From the NCBI GenBank assembly GCA_965214835.1, contig CBDCCK010000002.1, forward strand, positions 1,632,001-1,696,000: a stretch of DNA of 64,000 nucleotides. The letters run 5' to 3'. The position numbers were made by a program, and so were the translations under genes. This DNA comes from Nitrosopumilaceae archaeon. GTDB taxonomy: Archaea > Thermoproteota > Nitrososphaeria > Nitrososphaerales > Nitrosopumilaceae. Below the pieces are notes generated by a model. That model was given only the letters and a program-made list of their open reading frames with translations, did not search any database and was not told where the DNA came from. Position 1 is the stretch's first letter. Every line of letters begins with the position of its first letter. Below, in pieces: positions 17,158 through 49,722 of the stretch.

Positions 17158-17445
17158 ATGAAAAAACAAAAGTTCACATTGGCCGAAAAAACAGACATAG
17201 TGATGGAGTCCATCAAGACCAGCATCAGCACTGCCGAGCTGTGCCGCAAGCACAACATCGCGCCCACCACGTTTGGCAGGTGGATGGACAGGTTCGTCGA
17301 GGGCGGCAAGGCATCCATCCTGGGCCGGAATGACAAGGCAGCGGCTGCCCTGCAAAAGGAGAACCAGAATCTCAAACGCATCATAGGCGAGTATGCAGTG
17401 GCCTGTGACGCTTTAAAAAAAACAATGGAGCTGAGCAAAGGATGA
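17158..17445 (+). CDS. IS3 OrfA (HTH)
   Basis: ELCRKHNI..W; TTTAAAAAAAAC slippery run at 17412-17423. Confidence 0.9.
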   Translation: MKKQKFTLAEKTDIVMESIKTSISTAELCRKHNIAPTTFGRWMDRFVEGGKASILGRNDKAAAALQKENQNLKRIIGEYAVACDALKKTMELSKG

Positions 17446-18278
17446 ATGCCGTACAGATCTGCCACCAGAAGATGAGCCTCAATACAGCCCTGGAATACTG
17501 CGGCGTCTCAAAGGGCACCTGGTATTACGCCAGGAAGGACGCCGACAGACGAGCCAGAAAAGCCGACCCCGGGACGGTCTCAATCATACGTACCATAGGC
17601 AAGAAAAGGCCGACGTACGGAACCCGGAGGATGGCAAACCAGATATTGCGCGAGACTGGCGTGCGCGTAAACCGCAAAAAGATACAGCGAATCTACCGCC
17701 AGATAGGCTGGATCGAGCCCAAAAAGACCAAAAACGACATAATACGGGCCTCGCGCAAGCTTACAAGGCCAGATGCCCCCAACCGGCTGTGGCAGGCAGA
17801 CATCACATACGTGGACTGCGGCGGGGACGGCTGGTGCTACTGTTTCAACGTACTTGATGCCTTTTCGCGCAGGTGGCTTGCATACTCCTTTGATACCACG
17901 GCGCAAAAGGAGAATGCGGTTCAGGCCGTACTCGATGCGGTATCGGCAGCAGATCCGGACTGCAGCATGCTGACCCTGCGGACAGACAACGGTTCTCAGT
18001 ATACGTCGCGCATGTTCAGGGAGTCCCTGAAACAGCTGGGAATAAGACACGAGCTCATAGCATACAGGACGCCAGAACAAAACGGCCACATAGAGTCGTT
18101 TCACGGAAGCATCAAGAGGGAATACCTGTGGCCCCATGAATTTGACTCCTTCCAGGACGCCTCAGACGTCATAAGGGAGGCATTTAGGGACTATAACCAT
18201 GACAGAATACACTCCTCACTTGGATATCTCACTCCGATGGAGTTCGTCGTACGGCACCAAAGGGAGGCAGGCAAATGA
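17442..18278 (+). CDS. IS3 OrfB DDE integrase
   Basis: WQADITY, TDNGSQY, QNGHIESFH, YNHDRIHSSLGY. Confidence 0.93.
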   Translation: MNAVQICHQKMSLNTALEYCGVSKGTWYYARKDADRRARKADPGTVSIIRTIGKKRPTYGTRRMANQILRETGVRVNRKKIQRIYRQIGWIEPKKTKNDIIRASRKLTRPDAPNRLWQADITYVDCGGDGWCYCFNVLDAFSRRWLAYSFDTTAQKENAVQAVLDAVSAADPDCSMLTLRTDNGSQYTSRMFRESLKQLGIRHELIAYRTPEQNGHIESFHGSIKREYLWPHEFDSFQDASDVIREAFRDYNHDRIHSSLGYLTPMEFVVRHQREAGK

Positions 18279-18548
18279 TGATGCCAGAGCTACGCAAAAA
18301 CGCCCAAAAAGTGGTTCGAAAATACGGGGTCCAGATCAAGTTCTAGTCCGTCATTGCACACTATGACGCCTCCGGTAGGCATGCTCTTCATCTGCTTTAG
18401 TGGGGGCTCTACGTTGGCACCTAGCACATAGACTGACGTTGCGGGAACTATCAAAGCCATAAAAACTGAGACTGTCAAACAAGCGCGGACGGATCTGTTC
18501 AATGCACTCTTGCTCTAGAACTGGCATATTTAAGCGCCTCTTTTCACC

Positions 18549-18567
18549 CAGTAGACGGAAATGTACC
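18549..18567 (+). repeat. Isolated ISH3-like left end
   Basis: CAGTAGACGGAAATGTACC matches the reverse complement of 47397-47415 (18/19). Confidence 0.7.
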
Positions 18568-18573
18568 CGTATG

Positions 18574-18760
18574 AGACGTTATATCAAATCTTATCTGTAG
18601 CGGATGCCATATATTCCATGTTGGGCCCAAGAGCCGAAGTAACCTTGCCACGTATGAGGGCGTGTATGAGACTGGCTCAGAGTAGGCGGACAACAAAATG
18701 CCACATCGAGGGCGAATGGGAGTTTTCCGTTCAGTTGGGCACACACACTTTGATCAACAA
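18574..18760 (+). ncRNA. Candidate IS110 bridge RNA in the left non-coding end
   Basis: ~200-nt conserved non-coding leader shared with 49371-49577; ATCAAA/TTTGAT closing stem, TTGGGCCCAA palindrome. Confidence 0.55.
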
Positions 18761-18772
18761 GGAGGTGATACA

Positions 18773-19969
18773 ATGATCAACATCGGAATAGACGTTCATA
18801 AAAAGACGTGCGTAGCAACCATCAAGGACGATACTGCAAAGATTCTGGAACAGACGGAGTTTTCCAACACGGCCGACGGAATAAGAAAATTTGTCGGACG
18901 GATCAACGAGAAATATGCAGGACACGAGATCCGTGCAGTCTGTGAGGCAACGGGGAACTACTGGATCCTGCTGCATGACATGCTTGAGGATAAGCAAATA
19001 GACACACTGCTGGCGCATCCTGCCAAGACCCGGGCCATAGCGCAGGCAAGGCTAAAGGATGATAAAGTAGACTCGGAGGTACTGGCAGATCTGCTCAGGA
19101 TGGACATGGTGTACGAGTCGTTCGTGCCTGACAGGTACTATAGGGACCTGCGCGGCCTCTCAAGGGCCAGGATCGACGCAGTACGCCTGGGAACAGCCGA
19201 AAAGAACAAGATAACTGGTATGTGGTCACGTCCCCCTGCTGGCTAGGCGTGAAAATCATAGTCATAAATGCCAACTCGTGCCTGATTGGCAGGGGTAGGT
19301 GACCTCGTACGATAACTGCAATACTTGCAAAGTATGCGGCAAGGCCGCCCACCAAGGGCAAGTTTACCGTACAGGGAATCCAATGGATGCATGAGCTCTG
19401 CAGGGATGACGGGGACTGACATCTCGGAGATGGATAAAATGATGATAGGCACGGGACTGGACAGGATTGAAGTGACGCAGCAGCAGGCAGCAGGATTTGA
19501 GCGCAAGATTGCAACCATCTGCAGAGACGATCCCGGAACCAAGCTCCTGATGACGGTTCCCGGAATAAGCCACGTGATCGCACTTGCCATAATATCTGAA
19601 ATAGTAAACATACAAAGATTTCCCACCACAGAAAAGCTTGCATCATACGCGGGCCTGATATCGTCACACCGCAACAGCGGCGAGACCGTACGGGGAGGAT
19701 CAATAACCAAGACCGGCTCTGCATGGCTGCGATACGCCATTGTCAACGCAGCTACCGTAGCGGTGCAGCACGATAGCAGGATGGGTGAAAGGTACAGTAG
19801 AATAGCCAAGCACAGGGGAAGGCAAAAGGCCAAGGTGGCCGTGGCCAGAACGCTTGCAAAGGTGATCTGGCACATGCTGACCAATGAAACGGAATACCGC
19901 ACGCAGAACAAGGAGCTCACGCAGAGAAAGTATAAAGCGATGGAATGCCTAGTGAATGCGTCTGACTGA
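18773..19969 (+). pseudogene. IS110 DEDD recombinase disrupted by MITE B and a further frameshift
   Basis: GIDVHK, CEATG, KDDKVDS, TVPGI, YAGL..SHRNSG, KVAVARTL. Confidence 0.9.
19218..19310 (+). mobile_element. MITE B, 93 bp, TSD GATAACTG
   Basis: GATAACTG at 19210-19217 and 19311-19318. Confidence 0.95.
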
Positions 19970-20020
19970 AAAACGCACACTCGCAGTGGCCCGTGCAGGG
20001 AATCAGCACCGTTTGATATG

Positions 20021-20445
20021 GGGGTCACCTACCCCCTAGATTATCTTGGCCACCTCGACCATTATGGACTTGCCCTGCATCCTCCACGTCGACGTGCATG
20101 TCGTGAACCATCCGTGCCTTTCCATCCAGACCAGGCCGCCCTTGATCTGGCCGCTTATCTTGCGGTACAGCACGACGGGACGCAGCGCCCGCTCTGCATA
20201 TCCATTACGAGGATGCAGAATACAGACTAGCCAGCGGTACAACACGACGGGGGCGAGTTCTCGTTCTCGTAGTACCTGAGCCTGCCGCCCTGCTCCCCGA
20301 TGGTCTTGTCCTTTTCATTGATGGTCTTGTTTAGCTGATCAATGGTCTTGTCACGCTCCTTGAGATCCTTCCTCAGACTCATCGTCTCCGAGGTTAATGC
20401 TGCAGATGCCTCGATCTTGCGATGTGTGGGGGGTTGGCCCTTCAT
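20021..20445 (-). pseudogene. Internally deleted IS66 (single-ORF type) remnant with right TIR
   Basis: Coiled coil plus YENENSPPS fused to N.YAERALRPVVLYRKISG..TWRMQG; end GGGGTCACCTACCCC resembles the MITE B end. Confidence 0.75.
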
Positions 20446-20479
20446 AATGCCTAGTCTACGCGATCATAGTATAAGGATC

Positions 20480-20572
20480 GTACGAGGTCACCTACCCCTA
20501 TCAATCAGGCACGAATTGGCATGTAGGGTTATGATTTTCACGCCTGGCCAGCAGGGGGAAGTGACCACATAC
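20480..20572 (-). mobile_element. MITE B, 93 bp
   Basis: GTACGAGGTCAC...GTGACCACATAC. Confidence 0.92.
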
Positions 20573-20580
20573 CATGGAAT

Positions 20581-21015
20581 TGGTGTGGGATCCGAATAGT
20601 TCACCCCCCATCTGACATGATACTCCTCCCCAGTCTGCCCATCTATGACCGTTTCGCCCGCAGGAGGCATCTTGCGCTCATATGCCTGCGCCAGCGTCTC
20701 CTGGTTCTCCCGGTCAAGGGACATGTGGGGCCTGTCGTAGTTGTACCATTTCGTGAACAGATCCACGGGATCGCTTGTTCTCATCATTATATCCTCAAAC
20801 TCGTGCAGCTTGCGCTGTATCTTGCCGTGCAGCCTCTCTACCTTGCCGTTTGTCTGCGGGTGGCGCACCCCGGCAAGAACCTGCCGTATGCCTAGGGCCT
20901 CCAGGCTGATCATTCCGACCAGCCTTGCGCCCTCCTCGGTAACCGGCAAGAACCTGCCGTATGCCTAGGGCCTCCAGGCTCTCCTCGAACCTGCTGCACC
21001 CCTTCCTTGCACCAT
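20581..21015 (-). pseudogene. IS481-like integrase-core remnant
   Basis: RHPQTNGKVERLH, WYNYDRPHMSL. Confidence 0.8.
20870..20980. repeat. 38-bp perfect direct repeat around a 35-bp insert
   Basis: CCGGCAAGAACCTGCCGTATGCCTAGGGCCTCCAGGCT at 20870-20907 and 20943-20980. Confidence 0.9.
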
Positions 21016-21698
21016 GCTTGCACATCAAGAGGAAGTTCGACGTGCAATACAGCAAGAGCGGCACGCGGCTACTGGCACGCAATCTTGGGTTCTCTTGGAA
21101 AAAGCCGAGGCCTAGGAACCCAAAGGCCGCCTCAAAGCACAGGCAGAACGAGTTCAAGGAGGCGGCGCAGAAGTTGATACGGGAAAAGACGGCGCAGGGT
21201 TACACGGTGCTGGCAGAGGACGAGTCCTCCGTCCAAAAGACCTCAGACAGCCCCAAACACGGGTGGGTCAGTCGCGGCATGAGCGTCACGGCGCCCCTGT
21301 CGCTGTCACGGCAGCGCCGGTACATGTTCAGCGTGCTGGCAGTCGGCACGTTCTACTTTATGCTCTATGGCAAGATCAACACCGGCAGCTTTTGCGACTT
21401 TTTAGAACGGGTGCACCAGAGGTACGGCAAGGTGCTGATATTCCTAGACAATGCGTCATACCACAAGTCCGGTGGCGTAAAGGAGACGCTGGAAAAGTAC
21501 GATGGCGAGATAATGCTAGAGTACCTGCTTCCGTACACGCCGGAGCTCAACCCAGTCGAGATACCGTACAGGGAGATAAAGCAGAGGCTGTCTGTCCGGA
21601 TATTTGACACGCTTGATGACATGGAGCGGTCAGTGCGAAGGCTGTTTGCCAAGTGCGAACTCCTTCCGATAAAGCTGTTCCAATACCTGATGGGCTGA
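21015..21698 (+). pseudogene. 5'-truncated IS630-family transposase
   Basis: LGFSWKKPRP, AEDES, LDNASYH, PYTPELNPVE. Confidence 0.85.
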
Positions 21699-49370: not shown

Positions 49371-49722
49371 GTATGAGACGCTGTATCAAATCTTATCCGT
49401 AGCGGACGCCATATCATCCGCGTTGGGCCCAAGAGCCGAAGTAAACTTGCCACGTATGAGGGCGCGTAAGAGACTGGCTCAGAGTAGGCGGACAACGAAA
49501 TGCAACATAATCGAGGGCGAATGGGAGTTTTCCGTTCAGTCGAGCGCACACGCTTTGATCAAAAAGGAGGTGATATAATGATCAACATAGGAATAGACGT
49601 TCATAAAAAGACGTGCGTGGCAACCATCAAGGGCAGGGCTGCCAAGATCCTGGAACAGACGGAGTTTTCCAACACGGCCGATGGAATAAGGGGATTTATT
49701 GGGCAGATCAGAGAGAAATACG
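49371..49722 (+). mobile_element. IS110 copy 2: full left non-coding end plus truncated recombinase (ATG 49578)
   Basis: Aligns with 18569-18918; cut by an IS630 end at 49723. Confidence 0.85.

Follow-up and report, generated by a model that had tools for sequence, protein, structure and literature searches.

The IS110 Element in the Window and Its Copies in the Genome

The stretch of DNA analyzed here (the window, 64,000 nucleotides [nt] from a Nitrosopumilaceae archaeon) carries at 18576-20022 an insertion sequence (IS) that is very probably a dead member of the IS110 family, with a bridge (or seek) RNA encoded upstream of its recombinase gene and the first loop of that RNA aimed at the repeat ends of IS66-type elements and miniature inverted-repeat transposable elements (MITEs). 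It consists of a long non-coding left end (LE), the gene for a DEDD recombinase, whose start at 18773 is preceded by a GGAGGTGAT motif, and a short right end (RE; Table 1). The gene is broken twice, by insertion of a MITE and by a frameshift giving a stop at 19417-19419, and this copy can therefore no longer make recombinase. Its RNA fold and both ends look intact apart from a 1-nt irregularity at the right junction.

The whole genome (G000; 3.22 Mb in two contigs) was searched by BLAST with both halves of the element. A twin copy at C2:962977-964326 (C2 being a contig of this genome) lacks the MITE and has the identical frameshift, a copy about 90% identical at C2:311705-313056 has an open reading frame (ORF; protein P0001, 365 amino acids, encoded at C2:311759-312853), and many further fragments are present. 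This open-frame copy is the only one of the window type, called subfamily A below, with an intact frame. A 115-nt query spanning the MITE (window 19206-19320) gave 134 BLAST matches in the genome. The second copy in the window, which the original prediction, a note made from the sequence alone, had placed at 49371 behind an unrelated flank and with a conserved leader, was confirmed as a truncated copy starting at 49372.

Assignment of the gene to the IS110 family, also made in the original prediction, is confirmed by P0001, which matches Pfam PF01548 and PF02371 (E = 1.5e-25 and 8.7e-25) and NF033542, “IS110 family RNA-guided transposase,” with 243.9 bits against a cutoff of 140. In an alignment with the structure of IS621 (E = 4e-14), the E, D, D, and S positions are aligned; the first catalytic D (GIDVHK) lies outside this alignment and was judged from the Pfam match, which begins at residue 4. 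The catalytic residues are thus those of the open-frame paralogue, the window copy being broken. The plasmid matches bear generic names only, the best being a haloarchaeal and a Rhizobium element (38% identity each). The small-subunit rRNA of the genome is matched best by the archaeal model. About 20 further IS110-family genes, detected by tblastn with P0001 at ~25–37% identity, are present in the genome, in several multi-copy families, with one on the small 13-kb contig C1. A short relic of an IS110 recombinase N-terminus also lies at 1362-1571 of the window (79% DNA identity to 18746-18849; 51% protein identity over 61 amino acids).

Table 1. Features of the IS110 element and its surroundings in the window (g1 to g4, predicted guides; P2, a predicted hairpin).
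Feature	Position	Strand	Remarks
Left target half	18569-18575	+	GTATG (repeat nt 1-5) and core AG (18574-18575); seen from the left junctions of the subfamily
Non-coding left end (LE)	18576-18772	+	197 nt
Predicted bridge (seek) RNA core	18625-18740	+	~116-130 nt; closing stem P0, target-binding loop, donor-binding loop; fold conserved in 25 relatives
g1 (GTAACCT), loop 1, 5′ side	18639-18645	+	Reverse complement of core and right target (AG+GTTAC)
Hairpin P2, loop CGTATGA, contains CGTATGAGGG	18647-18661	+	Predicted structural element, not guide; loop kept as CGYAYGA in relatives
g2 (GTATG-AG-AC; GTATGAGAC), loop 1, 3′ side	18664-18672	+	Same sense as left target and core, then 2 nt equal to LE nt 1-2 (handshake-like)
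g3, loop 2, 5′ side	18691-18699	+	Antisense to LE nt 2-7 (right donor); imperfect match
g4 (AATGGGAG), loop 2, 3′ side	18715-18722	+	Same sense as RE terminus ATGGG and core AG (left donor)
DEDD recombinase (transposase) gene, broken	18773-19969	+	From ORF list; translation begins MINIGIDVHKK
MITE B, 103 bp, inside recombinase gene	19218-19320	.	Read from sequence; 8-bp target duplication GATAACTG at 19210-19217 and 19321-19328
Right end (RE)	19970-20022	+	53 nt; subterminal repeat TTTGATAT at 20012-20019, terminus GGG; conserved in relatives
Right target half, internally deleted IS66-family element	~20023-20460	-	GG-TCACCTACCCC...; remnant ORFs match N- and C-termini of PF03050 transposase
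Second copy of subfamily A, 3′-truncated	49371-49720	+	g1 GTAAACT, g2 GTAAGAGAC; begins behind G-TATG-AG; covariance-model match C2:1681422-1681553

The Predicted Bridge RNA

When 401 genomes from the class were searched with the protein, 67, G000 included, gave matches at E <= 1e-30, and the relatives used here are 30 loci returned by this search plus one further locus, L021. The leaders of the closer relatives (~41–83% protein identity) show a common pattern, and 25 leaders were aligned with MAFFT (alignment A2). The resulting fold is composed of five helices with 24 pairs in total, namely a closing helix P0, an outer stem P1 and a hairpin P2 forming loop 1, and likewise P3 and P4 forming loop 2. 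Standard pairs occupy 88.9% of the 594 cells of A2, compared with 29–48% when the 3′ partners are slid by 1–3 columns; compensatory change on both sides is found in 13 of the 24 pairs, and P1 and P4 are paired in 99.2 and 97% of cells, respectively. The hairpin P2 covaries in its stem (closing pair GC in 15 rows and AU in 10). G-U pairs are present, which is consistent with an RNA on the recombinase-sense strand. The left-end RNA is taken as the putative bridge RNA of the element. The minimum-free-energy fold of the leader as a single sequence is a different, long-range structure, and was rejected in favor of the comparative fold. An A/T-rich TTAT(A/C)-like motif is conserved inside LE ~25 nt upstream of the fold; it is a possible archaeal TATA box, which would give the RNA its own promoter within the left end.

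A covariance model built from A2, R1, matches 13 places in G000, all belonging to subfamily A or to a second subfamily, B; of 151 genomes sampled from the class, 10 contain a match. It also matches upstream of more distant relatives (~36–40% identity) with E-values from 6e-14 to 9e-6. The region upstream of the haloarchaeal plasmid relative gave a marginal match (E = 0.028), and R1 had no match beside the Rhizobium relative. Nor did it match the leaders of the ~20 further IS110-family genes of the genome, which may have other types of bridge RNA. A scan of 18300-20300 against Rfam 15 with E up to 10 yielded no curated bridge-RNA family and one chance snoRNA-like match inside the MITE.

Element Ends and the Proposed Recombination Core

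The ends were placed independently of the guides: the left end by its fixed distance of 44 nt to the fold and a YTATRYG consensus, and the right end by a conserved YRTGGG motif, which occurs in all 15 relatives with a recognizable right end. In 22 of 25 rows, AG directly precedes the left end, the exceptions being L032 (mis-registered), L044 (TG), and L036, whose left end is lost; in 13 of 15, AG directly follows the right end, the exceptions being the window copy (GG) and L027 (TG). From these junctions, the recombination core is predicted to be the 2 nt AG. LE nt 6-13 are the reverse complement of the part of RE just inside GGG, and in the window the LE member of this subterminal inverted repeat is ATATCAAA at 18581-18588. 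These repeats are 8–10 bp long and both arms covary among the elements (ATATCAAA, ATACGAAA, ATATGAAA, and ATGTGTT). Downstream of the recombinase gene in L029, L034, L035, L039, L040, and L050, there is a long, very GC-rich palindromic stretch (GGGGCGTT(T)CGCCGCCCC...GAGGGGCGGCTCAACGCCCC), and the true right ends of these elements are mostly unplaceable.

Seventeen left ends were found in the genome, 13 of subfamily A and four of subfamily B (75% identical). All 13 A-type left ends are preceded by G-TATG (seven), G-TAAG (five), or G-CATG (one) and then AG, outside which the flanks are mutually unrelated; after AG the elements begin with ACG, or GCG in one copy. Right ends are represented by eight rows, of which five are real A-type ends and three are positions extrapolated in truncated copies. 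All five real ones run from ...TTTGATATGGG into the end of an IS66-type or MITE repeat, the continuation being GG-TCACCTACCCC in the window, AG-GTTACGTCCCCC at C2:962977, and AG-TTT(A/G)CCCCTC in three copies. The original prediction had proposed that the right flanks of the genomic copies be checked for such repeats; this holds at 5 of 5 right junctions, and the 13 left junctions agree. Its view of the right-hand neighbor of the window copy as an IS66 remnant is likewise upheld by the ORF pieces at ~20023-20460. As for subfamily B, no right end was recoverable in the genome, B1 being cut by MITE C and B3 by an IS3-type element.

Predicted Guides and Their Match to DNA

Each loop of the fold exposes two unpaired strands that resemble the DNA at the junctions. 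On the 3′ side of loop 1, g2 was compared with the 7 nt left of the core in 24 rows and agrees at 116 of the 168 positions, where 54.0 are expected and none of 20,000 permutations scored as high; in a set reduced to 16 lineages, the agreement is 78/112 (37.1 expected). The last two nt of g2 equal LE nt 1-2 in 19 of the 24 rows. On the 5′ side, the reverse complement of g1 agrees with core and right flank at 94/135 positions in 15 rows (64.0 expected; 0/20000 permutations as high), registers 0–2 being permitted for real and permuted pairs alike, and at 77/108 (51.5 expected) when the set is cut to 12 rows. For g3 in loop 2, the reverse complement matches LE nt 2-7 at 101/138 positions in 23 rows (77.1 expected; 0/20000 permutations as high), with L023, L030, and L034 as clear cases, while hardly any variation is seen among the 25 relatives in g4 or in the RE terminus YRTGGG|AG. 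The left-flank test left out L036 (left end missing), and the g3 test both L036 and L032. The right-flank test left out L029, L035, L050, and the motif matches near B1 and B3, in which the subterminal repeat is absent; L021, L028, L037, L038, and B2 have no right-end motif. Of all rows, L032 (genome G282) fits worst, and none of the conclusions depends on it.

The relation between g2 and the left flank was also seen in 18 elements outside the training set of the model (79/126 against 42.8 expected; 0/20000 permutations as high), from which two exact duplicates had been removed, though the 18 include further copies of lineages used in training. In a distant clade, L041-L043 (~40% identity), the core is TG, and RE (CATGGA-TG) and g4 (ATGGATG) have shifted together, as have g1 and the right flank, so that the guide rules hold with this other core. 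Within the genome, g1 GTAACCT matches the right flank of the twin copy exactly, and its variant GTAAACT in the open-frame copy fits that copy’s own flank, AG+TTTAC. Guides GTAAACT/GTAAGAG sit in GTAAG-AG-TTTAC, and GTAACCT/GTATGAG in GTATG-AG-GTTAC; each guide pair thus lies in its matching site (C2:311705-313056 and C2:962977-964326, respectively), which points to natural reprogramming within one genome.

The original prediction had named two leader motifs as candidate guides, CGTATGAGGG (18651-18660) and GTATGAGAC (18664-18672). Both are present, and the latter coincides with g2; the former is most probably not a programmable guide, since it falls in the P2 loop, which is conserved in relatives with unrelated targets. 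The antisense guide g1 had been missed. The prediction had also remarked that the matches were same-sense and therefore not of the polarity of IS621. Same sense is what is expected of a guide pairing with the bottom strand; a departure from IS621 does exist, and it lies in the 5′/3′ order of the two guides. The covariance model and the flank comparisons bear out what had been proposed for the leader, namely a conserved structure and target/guide covariation, and the broader idea of an RNA-guided IS110 recombinase directed to abundant IS66/MITE ends is supported by fold conservation and guide-flank covariation in two sets of relatives.

The Targets: Ends of IS66-Type Elements and MITEs

The loop-1 guides spell GTA(T/A)G-AG-(G/T)TTAC, which corresponds to nt 1-12 of the terminal inverted repeats of IS66-type elements and their MITEs. 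If they act as guides, the element should land after nt 7 of the repeat (the core being nt 6-7) in one orientation and split the repeat. The open-frame copy spells the 12-mer GTAAGAGTTTAC, for which the genome offers 45 exact sites against 0.3 expected; within one mismatch there are 142 sites, and MITE-C repeat ends make up 122 of them. Copies of the repeat GGTCACCTACCCC number 90 in the genome. The window copy has as its target the end of a 1635-bp IS, which is present in at least eight near-identical copies and encodes a 510-amino acid PF03050 (IS66-family) transposase, and the target at C2:962977 is the other repeat type of MITE B. In the three copies followed by AG-TTT(A/G)CCCCTC, the target is the end of MITE C, ~95 bp long with the repeat GTAnGAGTTTACCCC.

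Weighing of the Evidence

Several observations weigh against the interpretation given above. The existence of the RNA, its ends, and its binding by the recombinase are inferred. The 12-mer spelled by the guides of the window copy, GTATGAGGTTAC, has no exact site in the genome, and its sites with up to one mismatch number 73 (27 IS66/MITE-B ends and 22 MITE-C ends) against 12.7 expected. The right junction of the window copy reads TATGGG|GG|TCACC, one base short of the model and with GG for AG, an irregularity for which we can offer no explanation beyond decay of a dead copy. The pairing between g3 and LE is imperfect (mostly 4–5 of 6) and does not cover the core, and a copy at C2:2366155/2364440 has g1 GTAACCT beside AG+TTTAC, with one mismatch. 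Since the rows permuted are related, the tail probabilities are overstated, which the reduced sets cure only partly. Finally, contigs from four DNA runs, which are a weak test, contained neither a circle junction nor an empty-site polymorphism; the only relevant joint in them connects 19209 to 19311, skipping 101, and fits the MITE-free paralogue.

The anatomy assumed in the original prediction differs from ours: the element would run from AGAC to TTTGA between two copies of a 4-nt core or duplication, TATG, and both CGTATGAGGG, matching the target, and GTATGAGAC, matching the element end, would be guides. TATG is indeed found at 18570-18573 and 20017-20020, at both ends of the twin copy as well, and both motifs are in the leader. 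However, the open-frame copy has TAAG on the left and TATG on the right, and the right-hand YRTGGG is conserved in relatives regardless of target, so that the left TATG would be nt 2-5 of the repeat and the right one the conserved end of the element rather than a common core; relatives whose flanks are unrelated, moreover, keep CGYAYGA as a hairpin loop. With AG as the core, the restored site of the window copy is GTATG-AG-GTCACC..., not GTATGGGGGTCACC, for which no empty counterpart was found. The sites restored under the TATG scheme (GTATGGGAGGTTAC and GTA(A/T)GGGAGTTTAC) exceed by 2 nt the length of any empty repeat end found, whereas excision at AG restores canonical repeat ends for both cleaner copies, including the GTAAGAGTTTAC end with its 45 exact copies. 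The two schemes also predict different circle junctions, ...TTTGATATGGGAGACGTT... with the AG core and ...TTTGATATGAGACGTT... with TATG; in place of the proposed GTTTGA-TATG-AGAC, we expect ...TTTGATATGGG-AG-ACGTTATATC.... On these grounds the TATG anatomy is regarded as highly unlikely. A right-end remnant suspected upstream of the copy at 49371 from a common CGTTTGA was rejected, its local alignment score of 16 being reached in 89 of 300 shuffles.

One might also suppose that the recombinase finds the repeat end through protein-DNA contacts, the leader being no more than a 5′ untranslated region or a regulatory structure that resembles the flanks as a by-product. The near invariance of g4 and of the right end, which leaves them little covariation of their own, would suit such a view. 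It has difficulty with the unpaired strands of loop 1, which change together with both flanks across unrelated targets while the stems are kept by compensatory change, and RNA guidance has been shown experimentally for IS621, ISEc11, and ISEc21 in the cited passages of PMC11208160 and PMC11187229; we consider this view quite improbable. It is still harder to believe, and close to negligible as an explanation, that the order of events was the reverse, IS66-type elements and MITEs having inserted beside the right end of an IS110 element. MITE B does insert into IS110, as at 19218-19320 with its 8-bp duplication, and the region is dense with IS remnants, but no 8-bp duplication surrounds the repeat ends in question, the repeat is split by one and the same IS110 copy, with nt 1-7 on its left side and the rest on its right, and the leader holds both halves of the repeat end as guides.

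Proposed Mechanism and Comparison with Known Systems

By analogy with IS621, ISEc11, and ISEc21, the element would be excised as a circle joining ...TATGGG-AG-ACGTT..., and a complex of recombinase and RNA would then pair with the circle junction through loop 2 and with the target through loop 1. Strand exchange would take place at the 2-nt core AG, or CT on the other strand.

Each loop of the IS621 RNA has a 5′ strand that pairs with the bottom strand, and is thus same-sense with left half and core, and a 3′ strand that pairs with the top strand; its core is CT, with handshake bases adjoining the right guides (cited passages of Durrant et al. 2024, PMC11208160, and Hiraizumi et al. 2024, PMC11208158). 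The element described here shares with IS621, as far as these passages describe it, a DEDD and Ser recombinase, an upstream RNA specified by the left end, with separate loops for target and donor, and in each loop one guide in top-strand sense and one antisense guide overlapping at a 2-nt core, which is here CT on the other strand. As in the handshake guides of IS621, the 2 nt beside the guide pairing with the CT-bearing strand match the other DNA partner. It differs in its archaeal host, in sequence (~26% identity to IS621, E = 5e-9; the search against the PDB chain gave the E-value cited above), and in the reversed order of the guides in both loops, the guide complementary to the recombinase-sense strand being 5′ here and 3′ in IS621. 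When the site is read on the other strand, everything is IS621-like, with CT as the core and the extra nt of g2 at the handshake position, so the cargo would be inverted relative to the recombination site.

A similar mixture appears when the element is compared with the two groups of the family. A long non-coding region upstream of the recombinase gene (LE of 197 nt compared with RE of 53 nt) is a feature of the IS110 group (IS621 and ISEc21). Unlike in that group, the same-sense guide is 3′ of the antisense guide in both loops (the criterion being that of the cited parts of PMC11208160 and PMC11187229), and the subterminal inverted repeats are 8–10 bp long, compared with none or 2–3 bp reported. 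According to the cited part of Siddiquee et al. 2024 (PMC11187229), seekRNAs of the IS1111 group have the top-strand match 5′ of the bottom-strand match, while in ISEc21 it is 3′. The element agrees in this order with the IS1111 group (ISEc11, ISKpn4, and ISPa11), and its subterminal inverted repeats fall in the 7–17 bp range of that group. Its RNA is upstream of the recombinase gene, whereas theirs is downstream, with rare exceptions such as ISMtsp17, an IS1111-type element with an upstream non-coding region (PMC11187229).

Insertion into other mobile elements has precedents within the family. IS4321/IS5075 insert into Tn21-family transposons, at their 38-bp repeats. For ISEc21, the insertion site is a conserved position within transposase genes of the IS3 family (cited part of PMC11187229). 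The present element resembles them in having a specific target within another mobile element and so accumulating in transposon ends or genes, and differs in that it is aimed at the outermost part (nt 1-12) of IS66-family repeats, so that only 5 conserved nt lie to the left of the core. As to archaea, the cited part of bioRxiv 10.1101/2024.06.21.599552 counts 662 IS110 recombinases among 2,835 archaeal genomes, distributed over several clades in which they are mixed with bacterial recombinases. A full-text literature search returned nothing on bridge RNAs of Nitrososphaeria or on IS110 elements aimed at IS66 repeats, although supplementary data may list such elements.

Neighboring Elements and Other Insertions

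The surroundings of the element are a pile of IS remnants. To its right, another copy of MITE B at 20480-20572 abuts the IS66 remnant and is followed by an rve_3 fragment (20488-20949, minus strand) and an IS630-like DDE_3/HTH_33 ORF (20961-21698). Directly to its left, at 17158-18335, lies an IS3-type element with orfA (HTH_Tnp_1) and orfB (rve/rve_3). The reverse complement of the right end of this IS3-type element truncates the subfamily-B copy B3 at C2:~1909960. An abundant IS with the end CTATACTGATG(A/G)(T/C)CATTGAAAATTTCGCC is found at 57 places in G000:C2 (for example, 245782, 958790, and 2246408, strand-specific coordinates), and B3 is inserted ~60 nt inside it, at GGTTTATAG|ATC.... 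This site fits the B3 guides, g2 TTTTATAG and the reverse complement of g1 AGATCAC, which indicates that the second IS110 lineage of the genome also targets another IS.

Two copies of B1, at C2:1917000-1917720 and 1962550-1963270, have identical flanks on both sides and are ~45 kb apart; they are probably the outcome of a segmental duplication rather than of two insertions. At C2:639949-639980 and C2:1909305-1909336, there are 32-nt fragments of A-type left ends, the latter nested within the recombinase gene of another A-type copy. Both continue into TAGTTTGTTG..., and this common joint suggests a further element inserting at the same point of the IS110 left end.

Implications for IS110 Elements in Archaea

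The element appears to be a well-supported archaeal member of the IS110 family with a bridge/seek RNA. Within the cited portions of the literature, recombination guided by such RNAs has been demonstrated so far for bacterial elements only, and this locus with its ~40 relatives offers a clean and purely comparative case in mesophilic archaea, in which the fold, the two guides for the target, the two for the donor, the core, and the handshake-like bases are all readable from the sequence. Compact candidate recombinases are on offer for testing, and because an open-frame copy exists, this does not require the repaired enzyme that the original prediction had proposed. The mixture of IS110-type and IS1111-type features bears on the divergence of both groups, and the relation of one IS inside another, IS110 in the repeat ends of IS66-type elements, may play a part in the IS dynamics of an archaeal genome rich in such elements. 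Rather speculatively, and with more doubt than confidence, the elements of Nitrososphaeria might represent a distinct IS110 architecture, combining an upstream RNA, guides of IS1111-type polarity, long subterminal repeats, and an internal archaeal promoter, of which one lineage would be an RNA-guided hyperparasite that disables the repeats of IS66-family elements and MITEs by splitting them and thereby shapes the IS load of unusually IS-rich ammonia-oxidizing archaea.

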